DNA from: a virus
Length of the DNA: 5,714 nt
IMG/VR virus record: IMGVR_UViG_3300045988_001675
Coordinates: 1 to 5,714 of that record
Reading direction: 5' to 3' (one strand)
The position numbers and the translations under genes are program-made. Shown here one piece after another: positions 1 to 5,714 of the stretch (position 1 is the stretch's first letter; the number at the start of each line of letters is the position of its first letter). Under the pieces are notes generated by a model, which saw only the letters and a list, made by a program, of their open reading frames with translations, was not told where the DNA came from and did not search any database.

Positions 1-55
1 TCAACGGAGCGATAACAGAAGAAGCAGAAGTAAGCGTAACACCAAATTACGCAGA
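1..55. repeat. Left copy of an exact 55-nt terminal duplication (identical to 5660..5714); a circular-contig overlap, not a biological repeat
   Basis: Direct comparison: tcaacggagcgataacagaagaagcagaagtaagcgtaacaccaaattacgcaga is present at both ends. It lies inside the capsid reading frame. Confidence 0.95.
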
Positions 56-872
56 CTTCGCATGCAAACAATCGGGAAGGGCATATTTAGGCGCAGACCT
101 AAGCACTGTCACAGCAACAACAATTAACGACTTGCGAAACGCAGTTGCAGTACAGCAGTATTACGAAGCACTGGCGCGTGGTGGCAGCAGATACCGCGAA
201 CAGGTACAAGCACTGTGGGATGTGACAATCAGCGACAGAACGGTACAGATTCCCGAATATTTGGGCGGTGGACGCTATCACGTCAACATGAATCAAATCG
301 TCCAGACCAGCGGACAGCAGAGCGACAAAGATACCCCCATCGGCGAAACTGGCGCAATGTCAGTAACACCGGTGAACGAAGGATCCTTCACAAAGAGCTT
401 TGAAGAACATGGTTTCGTAATTGGTGTACTGTGCGTACGTCATAACAGAAGCTATCAGCAGGGACTTGAACGTTTCTGGAGCAGAACCGATAGACTTGAC
501 TACTATGTACCGCAGTTCGCAAATCTGGGAGAACAACCGGTTAAAAAGAAAGAAATCATGCTCACAGGCACGTCAACGGACGAAGAGACGTTCGGCTATC
601 AGGAAGCCTGGGCGGACTACCGAATGAAACCAAACCGTGTATCCGGCAAAATGCGCTCAAACGCATCAGGGACACTAGACTTCTGGCATTATGCTGACAA
701 CTACAAAGAAGTGCCAACACTGTCACAAGGCTGGATGATGGAAGACAAAAAAGAAATTGAAAGAACACTCATTGTTCAGAACGAACCGCAGTTCTTTGGA
801 GCAATCAGAGTGGCAAACAAGACCACACGTTGTATGCCGTTGTACAGTGTGCCGGGACTGAACAAGCTGTAA
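1..872 (+). CDS. VP1: Major capsid protein (Microviridae VP1 / F-family), C-terminal part; 5'-partial in this linear window and continuous with 4876..5714 across the circular junction
   Basis: The frame is open from base 3 to TAA at 870-872. The ORF-track start at 132 is only a TTG inside the open frame. The translation ...INDLRNAVAVQQYYEALARGGSRYREQVQALWDVTISDRTVQIPEYLGGG...GEQPV...YRMKPNRVSGKMRS... shows conserved blocks of microvirus capsid proteins. The reading frame matches 4876..5714 once the 55-nt duplication is collapsed (position p equals p+5659). The joined CDS is 1656 nt, 551 aa. Confidence 0.95.
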   Translation, partial: NGAITEEAEVSVTPNYADFACKQSGRAYLGADLSTVTATTINDLRNAVAVQQYYEALARGGSRYREQVQALWDVTISDRTVQIPEYLGGGRYHVNMNQIVQTSGQQSDKDTPIGETGAMSVTPVNEGSFTKSFEEHGFVIGVLCVRHNRSYQQGLERFWSRTDRLDYYVPQFANLGEQPVKKKEIMLTGTSTDEETFGYQEAWADYRMKPNRVSGKMRSNASGTLDFWHYADNYKEVPTLSQGWMMEDKKEIERTLIVQNEPQFFGAIRVANKTTRCMPLYSVPGLNKL

Positions 873-882
873 GAAAGGAGGA

Positions 883-909
883 AGCCCGGGTTTTGCCCGG
901 GCTATTTTT
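883..909 (+). terminator. Rho-independent terminator immediately after the capsid gene
   Basis: An 8-bp GC-rich stem, agcccggg (883-890) pairing with cccgggct (896-903), has a loop ttttg and is followed by a T5 run (905-909). It starts 11 nt after the VP1 stop codon. Confidence 0.8.
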
Positions 910-911
910 AA

Positions 912-1796
912 ATGGCAGGCTTAACAAAACTCTTAACCGCACTTAACATAGCAGGAAACGTTGCGAACACAGTCGGAACATTCGCAAATGCTGGAAAACA
1001 AATCGCAGGAGCGTTTGGAGGATGGGGGCAAACAGGCAACAGCCAAAGCAGCGGAGGAAGCACACAGCAAGGCGGTGGACACTCTGAAAGCGGAAGCCAA
1101 GCAGGAACAAACGTAAAACAAGTTGATGACTGGCTTAAACAGGCATATGCATACCAAGGACAAGAAAGCGCCATGCAGGGCAAATACAACAGCCAAAGTA
1201 TGTTAAAACAGATGGGATACAACACCTTACAAGCAATTATGCAGGGCGTATATAATCACATCGAAAATAACGTAGCCATGAACTACAACAGTGCAGAAGC
1301 ACTAGCAAACAGAGAATGGCAAGAACATATGTCAAACACGGCATATCAGAGAGCCGTAGAGGACATGAAAAAAGCAGGGATTAACCCAATACTTGCCTTT
1401 GCAAACGGAGGAGCAAGCACACCGGGAGGAAGTGCAGGGACAATCAGCGGAGCAAGTATGGGACTGGCAAGCAGCAGCGCACTTGGAGTAAGTCGAAGCG
1501 GTGGATTTGTCCCAAATGCATACGAAAGTTCGAGTTGGTCACAAAGTGACTGGTTTAACGCTGCACAAAGCTGGCAACAGATGCTCAGTACAACAAAAAT
1601 GACACCTTACGGACTACAGAAAACCTTAACCGAAATCGAAGACGGCACCGAAAAAGCAATCCAAAAGAGCGTAAACACCAATGCAAACAAAGGAAAAATC
1701 CAAGGAAGCACACACGGAAACAGAAAAAACGAAATGAGACAAGACAAAACGGGAAGTTACGGAGAAAAGAGAAAGCCAGGTGATTACTTAAAATGA
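912..1796 (+). CDS. VP2: Minor capsid / DNA pilot protein (Microviridae VP2, phiX174 H analogue)
   Basis: This is a 294-aa ORF directly downstream of the capsid gene. It has a hydrophobic/Gly-rich N-terminus followed by a G/S/Q low-complexity tract. The block NREWQEHMSNTAYQRAVEDMKKAGINPILAF is the conserved signature I recognise from gokushovirus VP2 proteins. The stop overlaps the Rep start (ATGA at 1793-1796). Confidence 0.9.
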   Translation: MAGLTKLLTALNIAGNVANTVGTFANAGKQIAGAFGGWGQTGNSQSSGGSTQQGGGHSESGSQAGTNVKQVDDWLKQAYAYQGQESAMQGKYNSQSMLKQMGYNTLQAIMQGVYNHIENNVAMNYNSAEALANREWQEHMSNTAYQRAVEDMKKAGINPILAFANGGASTPGGSAGTISGASMGLASSSALGVSRSGGFVPNAYESSSWSQSDWFNAAQSWQQMLSTTKMTPYGLQKTLTEIEDGTEKAIQKSVNTNANKGKIQGSTHGNRKNEMRQDKTGSYGEKRKPGDYLK

Positions 1797-2812
1797 GTTG
1801 TTACAAGCCATTAATAAGGCTGTACAACCCGAACGATAAAGACATTAGCGGGAGGGTGTATTCACTCTCCCGCTATTCTCAGTTAGCGGGAAAGCAGCTG
1901 AAATATGAAGATTTGATGTACAGAAAAGATGTCATGTTAATACCATGCGGACAATGCATCGGATGTAGAATCAGACAACGCGAGGACTGGACAACACGCA
2001 TAGAGCTAGAAGCAAGAGATTATCCGAAAGAAGAAGTATGGTTTATTACACTAACCTATAATGACGACAATGTACCGGGTATAATAGTCAAAACAGGGGA
2101 AATAATGCGAAAAGTGCAATACGTCTGGAAGCCGGGTGAGAAGCGTCCTGAAAGCGTCCAAACGTTGCTGTATACTGACGTTCAAAAGTTCTTAAAACGT
2201 CTCAGAAAGGCTTACAGGGGCAAACTACGCTATTTTGTAGCGGGAGAATACGGCGAACAGACAGCAAGGCCGCATTACCACATGATACTATATGGATGGA
2301 GACCGACAGACCTAGAGAATCTATACAAGATACACCACAACGGATACTATACCAGTAAATGGCTAGAAAATCTATGGGACATGGGTCAAATACAGATAGC
2401 GCAAGCAGTGCCAGAAACATATAGATACGTTGCAGGGTATGTAACCAAAAAAATGTATGAAATAGACGGAAAGAAGGGAAATGAATATTATGAACTAGGA
2501 CAACAAAAACCGTTCGCATGTATGAGCCTTAAACCGGGTCTAGGAGATAACTATTACCAAGAGCACAAAGCAGAGATTTGGAAACAAGGCTACATCCAGT
2601 GTACAAACGGAAAACGCGCACAAATACCACGCTATTATGAAAAAATGATGGAAGCTGAAAACCCACAAAGATTATGGAGAATTAAACAGAACAGACAAGC
2701 AGCAGCAATAGACGCAAACCGTAAAAAATACGAAAACACAGACTTTGCAGAACAATGCAAAACGAAAGAAAGAGTAATCAAAAAGCAGATGAAGAAGAGA
2801 GGGACACTTTAA
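1793..2812 (+). CDS. VP4: Rolling-circle replication initiator (Microviridae VP4, phiX174 A analogue; HUH endonuclease)
   Basis: This is a 339-aa ORF with a Cys cluster PCGQCIGCR near the N-terminus. Motif I is FITLTY (aa 84-89). The HUH motif is RPHYHMILYG (H161-Y-H163). The two-tyrosine motif III is YVAGYVTKK (Y212, Y216; compare phiX174 A YVAKYVNK). A SD-like aggtga lies 9 nt upstream of the ATG. Confidence 0.95.
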   Translation: MSCYKPLIRLYNPNDKDISGRVYSLSRYSQLAGKQLKYEDLMYRKDVMLIPCGQCIGCRIRQREDWTTRIELEARDYPKEEVWFITLTYNDDNVPGIIVKTGEIMRKVQYVWKPGEKRPESVQTLLYTDVQKFLKRLRKAYRGKLRYFVAGEYGEQTARPHYHMILYGWRPTDLENLYKIHHNGYYTSKWLENLWDMGQIQIAQAVPETYRYVAGYVTKKMYEIDGKKGNEYYELGQQKPFACMSLKPGLGDNYYQEHKAEIWKQGYIQCTNGKRAQIPRYYEKMMEAENPQRLWRIKQNRQAAAIDANRKKYENTDFAEQCKTKERVIKKQMKKRGTL

Positions 2813-2830
2813 AAGTGTCATGGTGTCACT

Positions 2831-2864
2831 TAGCCCAGTACCTATCAAGTAAGGTACTGGGCTA
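2831..2864 (+). terminator. 13-bp perfect hairpin 19 nt after the Rep stop; candidate terminator or structural element
   Basis: tagcccagtacct (2831-2843) pairs with aggtactgggcta (2852-2864) around the 8-nt loop atcaagta. The following sequence tattagatt is only moderately T-rich, so terminator function is uncertain. Confidence 0.4.
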
Positions 2865-2923
2865 TATTAGATTAAAAGCTCCATGTATCGCTTTATCCAG
2901 TCTATCAAATAGCTATACCTTAT

Positions 2924-2966
2924 CGCGTGTGCACACGCGCACGAAACGCGCACGCGTGCACGCGCG
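2924..2966. repeat. GC-rich imperfect inverted repeat made of two 20-nt perfectly alternating pyrimidine-purine tracts separated by aaa
   Basis: cgcgtgtgcacacgcgcacg (2924-2943) and cgcgcacgcgtgcacgcgcg (2947-2966) can pair over 20 positions: 16 Watson-Crick pairs, 1 G-T and 3 mismatches. The region contains nested perfect palindromes gcgtgtgcacacgc, gcacgcgtgc and gcgtgcacgc. Its composition contrasts sharply with the A-rich remainder of the genome. Confidence 0.75.
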
Positions 2967-3043
2967 GCCTTTTCGGCGCTATAGTTCGCAAGCTCACAAG
3001 CGCCGTATATTATATAAGTTGTTGTAGCCGTAGTAGTAGGAAT

Positions 3044-3218
3044 TGTGGAAAAGTTGATAAGTACTAAAATTTAACGTTAAAACGTAAATAAAAAAGAAAA
3101 AACCATGTTGAAAGTTTTGTTAAAAACTTGTTGAAATGTTAAAAGTTAGTCAAAATGACGAAAAACATTATGCAACATTTTGTGGAAAACCTGTTGAAAC
3201 TGTTGAAACTGTTGAAAA
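3044..3218 (+). repeat. Iteron-like array of about 10 same-orientation TGTTGAAA-type motifs, ending in a 3x tandem 9-mer (ctgttgaaa, 3191-3217)
   Basis: Exact tgttgaaa occurs at 3106, 3129, 3192, 3201 and 3210. The variant tgttaaaa occurs at 3118 and 3137, tgtggaaa at 3044 and 3181, and gttgataa at 3053. All copies are on the + strand in an AT-rich stretch that has no ribosome-binding sites. Confidence 0.8.
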
Positions 3219-3314
3219 CGCGCACGCGCGCAAGGAGTGGATTTAGCCGAGCTCCGCATACGCTACGCACGGCAAGGCGCTAAAGCGCCATTCAAACCAA
3301 AGGAAAAATAAAGC

Positions 3315-3343
3315 TTGACAAAACCAAAAAGGGATAATATAAT
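3315..3343 (+). promoter_or_regulatory. Consensus sigma70-type promoter for the peptidase/late gene block
   Basis: TTGACA (3315-3320), a 17-nt spacer and TATAAT (3338-3343) match the consensus at both hexamers with optimal spacing. This is followed by SD aggag (3364-3368) and ATG at 3377. Confidence 0.8.
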
Positions 3344-3376
3344 CAAAACAGCATAAGACAGAAAGGAGAAAACAGA

Positions 3377-3766
3377 ATGATTACAAGTTACATCGTAGAC
3401 ACAGACGGAAACGAAAAACTTGCAAGACACTTTAAGGTAAAAGAATTTGCTTGCAAAGACGGAAGTCCAATTGTATTCATTGATAACCATCTATACACCA
3501 TTCTAGACATCCTAAGACACGAGCTAGGAAAACCGATCATCATCACCAGCGGATACAGAACGCCAGAGTGGAACGCAAAATGCGGAGGAGCAAAATACAG
3601 CTACCATATGCGCGGTATGGCTGCAGACATCCGAGTCAATGGCATGAGCGCAAAAGCGCTTGCAAACAAACTAAATGAAATTGTACCGGATGAATGCGGA
3701 ATTATCGTATACAATGGCTGGGTGCACTTTGATGTGCGCAAAAGCAAATACAGAAAGGGGGTTTAA
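3377..3766 (+). CDS. Zinc D,D-/L,D-peptidase of the M15 (LAS / Peptidase_M15A-like) family; putative cell-wall hydrolase (endolysin-like)
   Basis: This 129-aa ORF has a strong SD. The motif order is typical of phage/bacterial M15 peptidases: FKVKEFACKDG ... LGKPIIITSGYRTPEWNAKCGGAKYSYHMRGMAAD ... GWVHFDVR. That gives the H-x6-D ... H zinc triad (H77, D84, H117, plus D119). There is no signal peptide or TM segment. Confidence 0.85.
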   Translation: MITSYIVDTDGNEKLARHFKVKEFACKDGSPIVFIDNHLYTILDILRHELGKPIIITSGYRTPEWNAKCGGAKYSYHMRGMAADIRVNGMSAKALANKLNEIVPDECGIIVYNGWVHFDVRKSKYRKGV

Positions 3767-3768
3767 AA

Positions 3769-3873
3769 ATGGCACTGGTTAGCCTGAAAGACATTAAACA
3801 GGCAATTGCAGTAATGCAGGAAATTCTCGAAAAGCTGGATAAAATCTACCACGCTCTGCACGACAAAAACTAA
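3769..3873 (+). CDS. Small hypothetical protein (34 aa), predicted amphipathic helix
   Basis: ATG at 3769 lies 2 nt after the peptidase stop and is preceded by aaggggg about 8 nt upstream. The translation is MALVSLKDIKQAIAVMQEILEKLDKIYHALHDKN, with TAA at 3871-3873. It is too short to appear in the ORF track. It fills an otherwise non-coding gap in a compact genome. No recognisable family. Confidence 0.45.
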   Translation: MALVSLKDIKQAIAVMQEILEKLDKIYHALHDKN

Positions 3874-3888
3874 GAAAGAAGAACAACA

Positions 3889-4113
3889 ATGATGAAATCA
3901 TGGAATGTACGAGACCAGACCAAAGAAGATCTTGAAGAACTTTTAAAACGCAAAAATAAGGAGATAGACGGCAACTTCATAATGCTGAAAAAAATCTCAA
4001 ACATCAACGATACAAAGAAGCTGCTAGAAGAAATCTGGTACATGAAGAGATTTGCAAATGCAATTGAAATGGAACTAATCAGAAGGGAATACAGAAATGG
4101 CAAAACATCGTAA
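3889..4113 (+). CDS. Hypothetical protein (74 aa), charged and helical/coiled-coil-like
   Basis: The ORF is on the ORF track and on the same strand as all phage genes. Only a weak purine-rich SD (gaaagaag) is present. The sequence MMKSWNVRDQTKEDLEELLKRKNKEIDG... is lysine/glutamate-rich with no TM segment and no motif I recognise. Confidence 0.55.
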   Translation: MMKSWNVRDQTKEDLEELLKRKNKEIDGNFIMLKKISNINDTKKLLEEIWYMKRFANAIEMELIRREYRNGKTS

Positions 4114-4219
4114 AAAGATGAACGGCGCAAAAGACCGCCGTATGTTCAACATAACCGCACGCAAAACCAAAACTATCAACCTCAGTCAAAAGCCTATGCG
4201 CGGCGGCATCCGGCTGTAA
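4097..4219 (+). CDS. Small basic DNA-binding/packaging protein (phiX174 J / gokushovirus ORF8-like), 40 aa
   Basis: Manual translation from ATG 4097 gives MAKHRKKMNGAKDRRMFNITARKTKTINLSQKPMRGGIRL, with TAA at 4217-4219. It is very basic (K/R rich) with a C-terminal PMRGGIRL, which I recognise as typical of the tiny basic proteins of gokushoviruses. It overlaps the 3' end of the 74-aa ORF by 17 nt in another frame. It is below the ORF-track size cut-off. Confidence 0.8.
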   Translation: MAKHRKKMNGAKDRRMFNITARKTKTINLSQKPMRGGIRL

Positions 4220-4236
4220 AAGAAAGGAGCAAAACA

Positions 4237-4476
4237 ATGGGACACAACTACTACGGAATCTGGGATAACGTGGCAAAGTGCTACGCATGGGTAGGCGAAA
4301 GCAAGAACAACGCCACCTTTGCACGTATGTGCAACGTGATGGCAAAAGACGAAAAGACCTTCATCGGGCAGAGTCCGCAGGACTACACCGGCTTTAAGCT
4401 GGCAGTCTTCGAAGACGAAATCGGCACGTTCACGAACGACACAGAGAAGGTATGGGAGGGCAAGCCGAATGAATAA
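4237..4476 (+). CDS. VP5-like non-structural protein (79 aa), putative role in ssDNA synthesis/packaging
   Basis: SD aaggag sits 7 nt upstream of the ATG. The pattern YGIWDNVAKCY...NNATFARMC...SPQDYTGFKLAVFEDEIGTF resembles the conserved layout of gokushovirus VP5 proteins (x-D-x-K-A-x-x-Y ... A-x-R-x-F ... P-E-D-(F/Y) ... G-x-F-D-x-x-x-G). The assignment is from memory of the family, not from a search. Confidence 0.6.
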   Translation: MGHNYYGIWDNVAKCYAWVGESKNNATFARMCNVMAKDEKTFIGQSPQDYTGFKLAVFEDEIGTFTNDTEKVWEGKPNE

Positions 4477-4879
4477 ACGATACGAAGAAGGGCGAAAGCC
4501 CTTCTTTTCAAATCCGGGCGAAAAAGAACAGAAACAATACGTCTGGGCAAAAGACGAAAACGGGAAAGAGTACCTTCAGGAAACAGAACCTATCGACATT
4601 CAAGCCGAAATCGAAAGCTATGCAGACGAGTGCGATATAAAAAGCATCGTACGAAAAGCAAGTTTCGACCCGGAATTTCTAAAAAGTCTGTCACAAGGCG
4701 CATTAACCACAGAAGAAACGCCACTCGTGGACATCACGGAATTTCCGCAGAATATCCACGAATACCATCAAATGATTGCAACGGCACAGGCAAATGCCAT
4801 TAAACTGGCAAAACAACAGGAAATGGCAAAAGCAGAGCCTGAGCAGAAAACCGAAGTAAAGGAGGAAAAGAAAGAATGA
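4469..4879 (+). CDS. VP3: Internal scaffolding protein (gokushovirus VP3-like), 136 aa
   Basis: It sits immediately upstream of the capsid gene and is translationally coupled to it (ATGA at 4876-4879). It overlaps the preceding ORF by 8 nt. It is an acidic, helical protein with a K/E-rich C-terminal tail, of size and character typical of VP3 scaffolds. Motif-level recognition is moderate only. Confidence 0.7.
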   Translation: MNKRYEEGRKPFFSNPGEKEQKQYVWAKDENGKEYLQETEPIDIQAEIESYADECDIKSIVRKASFDPEFLKSLSQGALTTEETPLVDITEFPQNIHEYHQMIATAQANAIKLAKQQEMAKAEPEQKTEVKEEKKE

Positions 4880-5714
4880 ACAGAAACAACGAAAGGCACT
4901 TTCTGAACGTACCACAGATGCACACCAGCAGAACACGTTTCAATCGTGACCAAACGATTCTTACCACGTTCGACAGCGGAGCACTAATTCCATTCTTTGT
5001 AGACGAAGTATTACCGGGCGACACCTTCCAAGTGAATACAAGTGCTATCATCCGTATGAGTACGCCAAAATATCCGGTTATGGATGACGCATTCATTGAC
5101 TTCTACTATTTCTACTGTCCAAACAGGATCATCTGGGATGACTTCAAAAAGTTCATGGGAGAAGCAGATGAAACGCCTTGGGAACCCAACAAGACGTATA
5201 AAGTGCCACAAATCCAGCTTGGAACCGGAGAAAAAGACGGATTAGCACAACCGTACGAAGGAAGCGTGCTTGACTATATGGGAGTGCCTACAAAAAGCAT
5301 ACCATCCGGAACTAAAGCGGAAAAAGTCAACGCACTGCCGGTAAGAGCATATGTAAAAATCTGGAATGAATATTTCAGGGATCAAAACGTAGACAATCCG
5401 GCAACGCTGAGAACGAACAGCGAGGACATCGATTACGGTGACCGTGCCGACAGCACGAGCTTAGAATTGGGCTGGGCAACAGCATACAGCGGTGGCAGAT
5501 GCCTACCGGTAAACAAATTCCACGACTATTTCACAAGCTGTTTGCCATATCCACAGCGAGGACCGGAAATTAAATTGCCGATATCAGGAAATGCAGCAGT
5601 AAGAGGATATAAAGACTTGAATTACAAAAATGTAATCCAAGCAAACGTCATACCCGTAATCAACGGAGCGATAACAGAAGAAGCAGAAGTAAGCGTAACA
5701 CCAAATTACGCAGA
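4876..5714 (+). CDS. VP1: Major capsid protein (Microviridae VP1 / F-family), N-terminal part; 3'-partial in the window and continues at 1..872
   Basis: ATG at 4876 is preceded by aggagg (4860-4865). No stop occurs before the window end, which is why it is absent from the ORF track. The translation MNRNNERHFLNVPQMHTSRTRFNRDQTILTTFDSGALIPFFVDEVLPGDTFQVNTSAIIRMSTPKYPVMDDAFIDFYYFYCPNRIIWDDF...ALPVRAYVKIWNEYFRDQNV... is an unmistakable microvirus capsid N-terminus. Confidence 0.95.
   Translation, partial: MNRNNERHFLNVPQMHTSRTRFNRDQTILTTFDSGALIPFFVDEVLPGDTFQVNTSAIIRMSTPKYPVMDDAFIDFYYFYCPNRIIWDDFKKFMGEADETPWEPNKTYKVPQIQLGTGEKDGLAQPYEGSVLDYMGVPTKSIPSGTKAEKVNALPVRAYVKIWNEYFRDQNVDNPATLRTNSEDIDYGDRADSTSLELGWATAYSGGRCLPVNKFHDYFTSCLPYPQRGPEIKLPISGNAAVRGYKDLNYKNVIQANVIPVINGAITEEAEVSVTPNYA
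5660..5714. repeat. Right copy of the exact 55-nt terminal duplication (identical to 1..55)
   Basis: A base-by-base match to 1..55. The capsid reading frame is preserved through the junction. Confidence 0.95.

Follow-up and report, generated by a model that had tools for sequence, protein, structure and literature searches.

The 5,714-nucleotide (nt) stretch of viral DNA analyzed here (IMG/VR record IMGVR_UViG_3300045988_001675, positions 1 to 5,714; hereafter the window) is a complete gokushovirus genome, whose 55-nt terminal overlap closes it into a 5,659-nt circle. On its plus strand, the open reading frame (ORF) at 3377..3766, here called pep, encodes a protein of 129 amino acids (aa) that sequence and modeled fold identify as a single-domain zinc peptidase of MEROPS family M15A with the clan MD LAS fold, His77, Asp84 and His117 being the proposed zinc ligands. 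We consider it probable that this peptidase is a cytoplasmic endolysin acting at the exit of a mammalian-gut gokushovirus, and that it reaches the cell wall through a membrane lesion not made by a holin.

The gene starts with ATG, and its 14.6-kDa product carries the motifs S75-Y76-H77, D84 and V116-H117-F118-D119, with triad codons cat (H77, 3605-3607), gac (D84, 3626-3628) and cac (H117, 3725-3727). Pfam Peptidase_M15_3 (PF08291) matched the protein over profile positions 2-108 of 108 (E 8.8e-24; 84.2 bits against a cut-off of 23.2), and PHROG 894, named "endolysin", matched it with E 2.5e-42. Peptidase_M15_3 and Peptidase_M15_2 were the only Pfam models matched at E ≤ 0.1; the VanX and VanY family models gave no match at E up to 0.1. 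The sole NCBIfam match, to the peptidoglycan L,D-endopeptidase MepK (NF053624), scored 45.3 bits against an equivalog cut-off of 185, and this identity was rejected. The only relative of solved structure found by sequence was 1lbu, the zinc D-Ala-D-Ala carboxypeptidase of Streptomyces albus G (sequence E 1.2e-6; profile E 4.5e-9), in which the motif SRHMYGHAAD aligns with H77-x6-D84. A weak profile match to the Hedgehog N-domain (E 0.37) also aligns the H-x6-D motif and places H117 at the third His.

Structural modeling led to the same family. An AlphaFold model built from a 64-sequence alignment with Faecalibacterium-type homologues, in which the triad is invariant throughout, had a predicted local distance difference test score (pLDDT) of 96.7 and a predicted template modeling score (pTM) of 0.90; it superseded a first run on 35 near-identical sequences, which had given a pLDDT of 77 and weak fold matches. 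In a Foldseek search of the PDB, 1lbu was again the best match (E 1.2e-5; root-mean-square deviation 2.2 Å over 89 columns, 29% identity), and the top 50 matches all had the LAS (Hedgehog/DD-peptidase) fold, 1lbu being followed by Hedgehog N-domains, VanY, VanXYc, Ply500, LdcB, LysB4, LysECD7 and ChiX. VanY and VanXYc are neighbors at the level of fold only, with 18-20% identity. In BFVD, tailed-phage M15A peptidases matched with template modeling scores of up to 0.96. An earlier note on this DNA, made from the sequence alone, had called the product an M15/LAS zinc peptidase and had suggested a hidden Markov model search and a structure prediction as checks. The significant M15 match in Pfam and PHROG, the conserved triad and the LAS fold with 1lbu as its best match bear that proposal out, and the ORF, its motifs, the promoter and the ribosome-binding site lie where the note had placed them.

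The peptidase is a fixed gene of its clade, not a sporadic one. Relatives were drawn from IMG/VR in three sets of 80, selected through the peptidase, through the capsid protein and through s34 (the small gene that follows pep); jointly these comprise about 150 distinct microvirus contigs. In the peptidase-selected set, the gene is intact in 80 of 80 relatives and always occupies the same slot, between VP4 and the block of small genes, VP5, VP3 and VP1, which answers the survey of this locus that the earlier note had proposed. H77 and D84 are invariant in that set, as are R61 and D119 beside the triad, and H117 is present in 80 of 81 sequences. The capsid-selected set, which is free of ascertainment bias, contains the peptidase in 77 of 80 relatives, and the remaining three are linear fragments that end exactly at the slot; among the capsid-selected relatives, every contig that reaches across the slot has the gene. 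Median ratios of nonsynonymous to synonymous substitution (dN/dS) were 0.14 for the peptidase, 0.17 for VP1, 0.06 for VP4 and 0.08 for s34. Databases hold more than 1,300 homologues, the top 120 at 78-95% identity and mostly on contigs of 5-6 kb; the peptidase is 98% identical to that of one IMG/VR contig (L001), and the identical protein is present in public JGI and Logan assemblies. The gene's base composition (A 0.37, T 0.20) goes with a codon usage close to that of the core genes: the correlation of relative synonymous codon usage with the core is r = 0.74 for the peptidase and r = 0.12 for the nearest tailed-phage homologue. The match in codon usage indicates that the acquisition is old, in agreement with the earlier view that a gene written in the codon style of the core is no recent insertion.

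A second allele class of the peptidase, 42-50% identical to the class of the window, occupies the same slot in 14 of the 77 capsid-selected carriers; a further comparison of the two classes gave 40-47%. Both classes share the terminal nucleotides TACAGAAAGGGGGTnTAA (protein ending YRKGV), and nearly all relatives have the ATG of the next gene 0-4 nt further on; in the window, the ATG of s34 stands at 3769, 2 nt past the peptidase stop codon. The last peptidase codons (R-K-G-V) contain a ribosome-binding site, AGAAAGGGGG, at 3752..3761 on the plus strand, which serves the downstream gene, so that the end of the peptidase frame does double duty. Relatives L095-L128 include both allele classes in this one slot (window 3752-3771) of closely related backbones. 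The shared TACAGAAAGGGGGTnTAA junction is probably the site of allele exchange, and the pattern points to cassette swapping by recombination there.

An endolysin role is suggested by orthology. In a tblastn search, the closest non-microviral homologues were the annotated endolysins of the Faecalibacterium phages FP_oengus (46% identity) and FP_Toutatis (43%), which are collinear with the peptidase and precede transmembrane or holin proteins. Cellular proteins of Faecalibacterium (including the isolates F. tardum and F. intestinale), Lawsonibacter, Lachnospiraceae, Oscillospiraceae and other Clostridia are equally close, with identities of up to 47% in the search and 44-50% in a pairwise table, and small transmembrane ORFs adjoin the homologue in 8 of 13 bacterial loci checked. 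The allele of the window is slightly nearer to these Clostridia-type proteins than to the second microviral class. Judged from sequence affinity, these relationships support a donor in Clostridia and, more weakly, a host in Clostridia. A capsid-protein scan of 185,579 GTDB representative genomes found no prophage relative. Two contigs of about 6 kb that carry the peptidase had been binned in metagenome-assembled genomes, L134 in one of Faecalibacterium and L136 in one of 'Bacteroides sp. CAG:545'; L136 (about 5.7 kb) is a distant microvirus with a VP1 42% identical to that of the window, and L134 has no VP1 or VP4 match. We set these bins aside as host evidence, as the binning of such small contigs does not identify a host. 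The virus itself has no cultured host.

The affinity to Clostridia suggests a thick-walled host of the Gram-positive type, and this bears on whether the peptidase could act at entry instead of exit, carried in or on the virion and opening the wall locally at DNA delivery. A virion-borne enzyme would need no holin; moreover, tailed phages put the M15A domain to use at entry, as part of tail-hub proteins of the Gp5 type and of giant structural proteins to which it is fused, and the hydrolase Gp7 of the microvirus Ebor was found in trace amounts in virions. However, the peptidase is collinear with free endolysins and shows neither an extra segment for binding capsid or pilot protein nor a fusion to VP2. 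A T=1 capsid leaves very little room for such a passenger, and a relative with the same backbone that lacks the peptidase exists (L223). We therefore regard action at entry as very unlikely.

The gene is the first past the single strong promoter of the genome. A sigma-70/sigma-A-type promoter, TTGACA-17-TATAAT, lies at 3315..3343 on the plus strand and is the sole 12/12 site in the window; with one mismatch or none allowed, 0.03 sites are expected per window, and 5 of 200 shuffled sequences reached one. Among relatives, a site matching at least 11 of 12 positions lies within 700 nt 5' of pep in 77 of 124, most genomes having exactly one, and its distance to pep is 20-49 nt, or about 190-280 nt where an unrelated small ORF is inserted. 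The Shine-Dalgarno sequence AAAGGAG (3362..3368, plus strand) lies 8 nt 5' of the peptidase ATG. From the promoter, a co-directional block runs pep-s34-s74-s40-VP5-VP3-VP1, and 11 nt past the VP1 stop codon there is a terminator-like plus-strand hairpin (883..903; 9-bp stem with seven G-C pairs, plus a T-run), which probably ends the transcription unit begun at 3315. The earlier note had described a perfect promoter and a strong Shine-Dalgarno sequence in front of the gene, and both are there; its claim that the promoter is the gene's own did not stand, as the promoter heads and serves the whole pep-to-VP1 block, not the peptidase alone. To call this block the "late gene block" is an assumption.

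Given an endolysin-type enzyme, we looked for a route to the wall. Transmembrane segments were detected by hydropathy only (Kyte-Doolittle scale, 19-residue window; KD19). The peptidase has no signal peptide or signal-arrest-release (SAR) segment: its KD19 peaks at 0.76 within the fold (residues 39-57), and its N-terminus, MITSYIVDTDGNEKLARHFK, is acidic, polar and collinear with cytoplasmic tailed-phage homologues. None of the annotated window proteins exceeds a KD19 of 1.3, and no plus-strand ORF of at least 25 aa, in any frame of the whole genome, reaches 1.4; the same measure, applied as a positive control to proteins adjoining the homologues of Faecalibacterium phages and prophages, gave 1.4-2.7 (1.4-2.6 in the phages). 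The absence of a signal peptide and of transmembrane segments in the neighboring ORFs had been noticed before and is confirmed here, the latter now for all plus-strand ORFs of that length. No conserved transmembrane ORF was found in the first 80 relatives, and the accessory ORFs inserted 5' of pep in relatives are all polar, none of them hydrophobic.

Genes hidden in other frames were considered as well. Inside pep, no overprinted ORF of at least 30 codons is conserved in the +1 or +2 frame, and opposite pep no antisense ORF of at least 40 codons is conserved. An overprinted lysis gene was rejected for the genome as a whole, the only three conserved alternative-frame ORFs, in VP2, VP4 and VP3, being all polar. 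Antisense genes were rejected too: the minus strand is rich in hydrophobic ORFs, its conserved open stretches face the codons of the capsid, Rep and pilot proteins, and because this complement is T-rich we regard the hydrophobic ORFs as compositional artefacts. Compared with a canonical holin-endolysin cassette, the window holds the gene of the predicted muralytic enzyme and no adjacent small transmembrane protein; compared with the single-gene lysis proteins of the phiX174 E type, which are small, membrane-anchored and devoid of a hydrolase domain, it holds no such protein.

We propose a scheme that accommodates these observations. Its first step would be an old capture of the peptidase gene out of a lysis cassette carried by a tailed phage or prophage of Clostridia, the closest known homologues being in Faecalibacterium; the gene is now fixed in a large clade, in the spacer between VP4 and VP5. 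Wired as the first gene past the promoter and linked to the next gene by the embedded ribosome-binding site, it would give an enzyme that builds up in the cytoplasm of the infected cell. When the membrane gives way, the enzyme would cut peptide stems or cross-links of the wall, and virions would be released. The agent that opens the membrane is not a classical holin; it is most likely either an unrecognized membrane-active viral product or a basal lysis function shared with peptidase-less gokushoviruses. The muralytic activity, the role at exit and the bond cleaved are what we infer for the protein.

Several points weigh against this scheme. Neither a holin nor a signal peptide nor a SAR segment was found in the window or among the conserved ORFs of the first 80 relatives, which leaves a canonical cytoplasmic endolysin without a visible path to the wall. 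The enzyme stands first behind a consensus promoter with a strong ribosome-binding site and no evident timing device, and is presumably made from the start of infection. Moreover, the literature that we searched yielded no gokushovirus M15 peptidase for which an activity, a substrate or a host had been shown.

The same points invite the thought that the peptidase never leaves the cytoplasm and acts as an enzymatic 'amurin', cleaving precursors of the wall in soluble or lipid-linked form, so that synthesis collapses and growing cells lyse without a holin. Its target could be the D-Ala-D-Ala end of UDP-MurNAc-pentapeptide, from which the terminal D-Ala would be removed, or else free D-Ala-D-Ala. 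Such an enzyme would stand beside phiX174 E, Qbeta A2 and LysM as a single-gene lysis protein that works by catalysis; its outcome would resemble that of E, with catalysis in place of MraY inhibition. Early, strong expression suits such a slow-acting block, and a clade of about 150 genomes keeps the peptidase without export signal or holin (the scan for conserved ORFs covering the first 80). The family prototype 1lbu was deposited as a muramoyl-pentapeptide carboxypeptidase/zinc DD-peptidase, two cytoplasmic enzymes, VanY and VanXYc, rank among the nearest structural neighbors, and over-expressed cytoplasmic VanX, a D-Ala-D-Ala dipeptidase, lyses Escherichia coli by starving wall synthesis (Sohya et al. 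2014, as cited in a review). However, the closest collinear homologues (44-50% identity) are tailed-phage endolysins beside holin-like genes, implying action on the assembled wall; the characterized PF08291 phage enzyme digests sacculi; and the Pfam search returned neither VanX nor VanY. On balance we think lysis by precursor cleavage unlikely. If true, it would explain how an endolysin-like gene is kept without a holin, a signal peptide or an overprinted membrane protein.

The gene next to the peptidase offered a further way out of the cell. The 34-aa product of s34 (3769..3873, plus strand) is predicted to form an amphipathic helix (MALVSLKDIKQAIAVMQEILEKLDKIYHALHDKN) that is not transmembrane, and export might be assisted by this translationally coupled protein acting as a non-transmembrane, membrane-disrupting partner of the endolysin. 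Its ribosome-binding site within the last peptidase codons, its start just past their stop, its retention in 78 of 80 peptidase-selected relatives under strong constraint (dN/dS 0.08) and the strongly amphipathic character of its helix (hydrophobic moment 0.58) all fit such a partnership. But copies at 76% identity occur in two more distant microviruses that lack the peptidase, the circular L223 (1251-1394) and the linear contig L228; the presence of s34 in microviruses without the peptidase means that it is not a dedicated peptidase partner, and rules it out as a specific export partner. Its position relative to pep also varies among relatives (pep-s40-s34 and pep-s74-s40-s34), the net charge of the helix is 0, unlike that of typical membrane-lytic peptides, and a heptad-like pattern suits a coiled coil equally well. 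Export assisted by s34 thus strikes us as quite improbable. The protein, 34-47 aa long across relatives with the consensus MAL.S.KD.K.AI..M..ILEKLD.IYHALHD, matches no family, and s34 looks like a small conserved gene that annotations of this gokushovirus lineage have missed. We accordingly retain a cytoplasmic endolysin, released through a lesion of non-holin origin, as the preferred reading.

The remainder of the genome is of the usual gokushovirus type, with all recognizable genes on the plus strand and the set VP1, VP2, VP4, VP3 and VP5 complete on one strand of a small circular genome. The capsid protein VP1 (Phage_F, E 4.5e-135) is encoded at 4876..5714 and, across the circle junction, on to 56..872; the pilot protein VP2 at 912-1796 (phrog_8742, E 1.3e-122); the Rep protein VP4 at 1793-2812; VP5 at 4237..4476 (Phage_ORF5 match); and the scaffold protein VP3 at 4469..4879 (Chlamy_scaf match). 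Between s34 and VP5 lie the small gene s74 (3889..4113) and s40 (4097..4219; phrog_10695), which encodes a basic 40-aa protein of net charge +12; neither product is hydrophobic. GGAG-type sites also precede VP1, s34, VP5 and VP3. VP2 starts 9 nt past the hairpin at 883-903 and, unlike VP1, pep, s34, VP5 and VP3, has no recognizable Shine-Dalgarno sequence. In GenBank, the genomes closest to the window come from gokushoviruses of the human and pig gut and share about 80-83% of its nucleotides, apart from two records in the 95-99% band; the GenBank relatives are classed as Gokushovirinae.

The interval from VP4 to pep spans 564 nt and is non-coding; the spacer proper, from VP4 to the promoter (2813..3314), contains hairpins and TGTTGAAA repeats and is the slot into which the peptidase was inserted. 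A perfect 13-bp hairpin lies 19 nt past the VP4 stop codon (2831-2864) and is followed, within 2924-2975, by a cluster of G+C-rich palindromes (CGCGTGTGCACACGCG...); these elements (2831-2975) might serve the single-stranded DNA (ssDNA) genome as complementary-strand origin, Rep site or terminator. At least five copies of TGTTGAAA occur at 3100-3225, about 100-200 nt 5' of the promoter, three of them in tandem at 3192-3217. About 80 relatives conserve the nucleotide sequence of this stretch, which lacks codon periodicity and looks like a DNA element (iterons, regulator sites or origin sites), not a gene; gene callers nonetheless put ORFs over it (3136..3246 and 3155..3283). An Rfam scan of the window gave no relevant match. 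In some relatives, a peptidase of 200 aa with an N-terminal extension has been called. We reject this form: here the upstream frame is closed by a TAA at 3281-3283, and because the extension crosses the DNA repeat element and the promoter, without codon periodicity, we regard the longer call as a gene-calling artefact.

Across relatives, the VP4-to-pep spacer is an insertion hot spot. Many relatives carry there one of several unrelated polar ORFs of 50-120 aa, which end 6-15 nt 5' of the pep ATG (L003, L005, L009, L015, L016, L019, L022, L026 and others). The order of s34, s74 and s40 is likewise variable, both pep-s40-s34 and pep-s74-s40-s34 being found, and s74 is cut to a remnant of 21-26 codons in several relatives (among L019, L022, L036, L008 and L031) and appears dispensable. 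A few IMG/VR contigs with the same gene set are far too long for a microvirus genome (L011/L221, 10.9 kb; L217, 10.7 kb; L105, 8.8 kb) and are probably chimeric or concatenated assemblies; part of L011 has the opposite compositional bias, with many hydrophobic ORFs on its plus strand.

Peptidases of this kind were already known in microviruses: the gene was published in 2012 and is annotated in GenBank, and it represents no novel type of element. Roux et al. 2012 (PMC3394797) reported PF08291 peptidases in five human-associated Gokushovirinae and six Alpavirinae, noted a horizontal origin and an affinity to F. prausnitzii for four of the five gokushoviral genes, and proposed an endolysin role and a Gram-positive host. 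The affinity to Faecalibacterium found here reproduces that result, and the earlier note's remark that M15-type peptidases occur in metagenomic microviruses was correct. In Kirchberger et al. 2022, peptidases count among the few accessory genes that microviruses have, one having moved between families by recombination, and Kirchberger and Ochman 2020 describe gokushoviruses as lacking an E-like gene, with some having acquired peptidases. What the present analysis adds is the fixation of the peptidase in a clade, two allele classes sharing a junction that doubles as a ribosome-binding site, a promoter that belongs to the whole block, an s34 that is not specific to the peptidase, and the absence of a transmembrane partner across about 150 genomes in all frames (the scan for conserved transmembrane ORFs covering the first 80 relatives).

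In the mammalian gut, few phages are as abundant as gokushoviruses, and this clade offers a clean case of their lysis problem: an endolysin-type gene, fixed and under selection behind a strong promoter, with no recognizable membrane carrier. Its solution could reveal a new route of endolysin release, or show that an M15 peptidase can kill a cell from within. The affinity to Faecalibacterium also leaves room for gokushoviruses that infect Clostridia, which are important and hard-to-study gut bacteria.

Among known systems, the nearest are the gokushoviral peptidases themselves. The GenBank genomes KX513868 ('Human gut gokushovirus'), KT264791 and MG945447 carry the same gene in the same slot after VP4, with 65-87% protein identity, and GenBank relatives (e.g., KX513868) have it annotated as 'peptidase M15'; from the gokushoviral peptidases of Roux et al. 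2012 there is no substantive difference, and the window represents a further member. The Faecalibacterium-type endolysins, found in phages and in prophages of Faecalibacterium, Lawsonibacter and Oscillospiraceae, are likewise single-domain Peptidase_M15_3 proteins, 137-138 aa long, collinear and 44-50% identical, and they share the triad and the equivalents of R61 and D119. They differ in a 7-residue insertion before the WVH motif, in ending SRWKG where the microviral proteins end YRKGV, in their G+C-rich codon usage (r = 0.12 against the microvirus core) and in lying mostly beside transmembrane or holin genes.

More distant comparisons follow the same line. The prototype of MEROPS M15A, 1lbu, shares the H-x6-D zinc motif but has a 213-residue chain, only the C-terminal catalytic part of which aligns with the peptidase of the window; that enzyme is secreted and has an extra N-terminal wall-binding domain. 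The M15A endolysin of Burkholderia phage ST79 is, like the window peptidase, a small (18 kDa), single-domain PF08291 protein; it was modeled on 1lbu, and its degradation of peptidoglycan was shown by zymogram and turbidity assays. It differs in belonging to a holin-LysB-LysC-endolysin cassette of a tailed phage with a Gram-negative host. Gp7 of Ebor (Tainavirinae), whose activity was shown by zymogram in 2025, is likewise a peptidoglycan hydrolase encoded by an accessory gene of a microvirus, but Ebor is of another microvirus lineage, has an Alphaproteobacterial host and encodes a 45-aa predicted membrane protein, Gp1, with no counterpart in the clade of the window. Finally, phiX174 E and the other single-gene lysis proteins face the same problem, the breakage of a wall by a tiny ssDNA or single-stranded RNA phage with minimal coding space; E works by blocking MraY, being a small membrane protein from an overprinted gene and not an enzyme, whereas the window encodes a predicted hydrolase domain instead.

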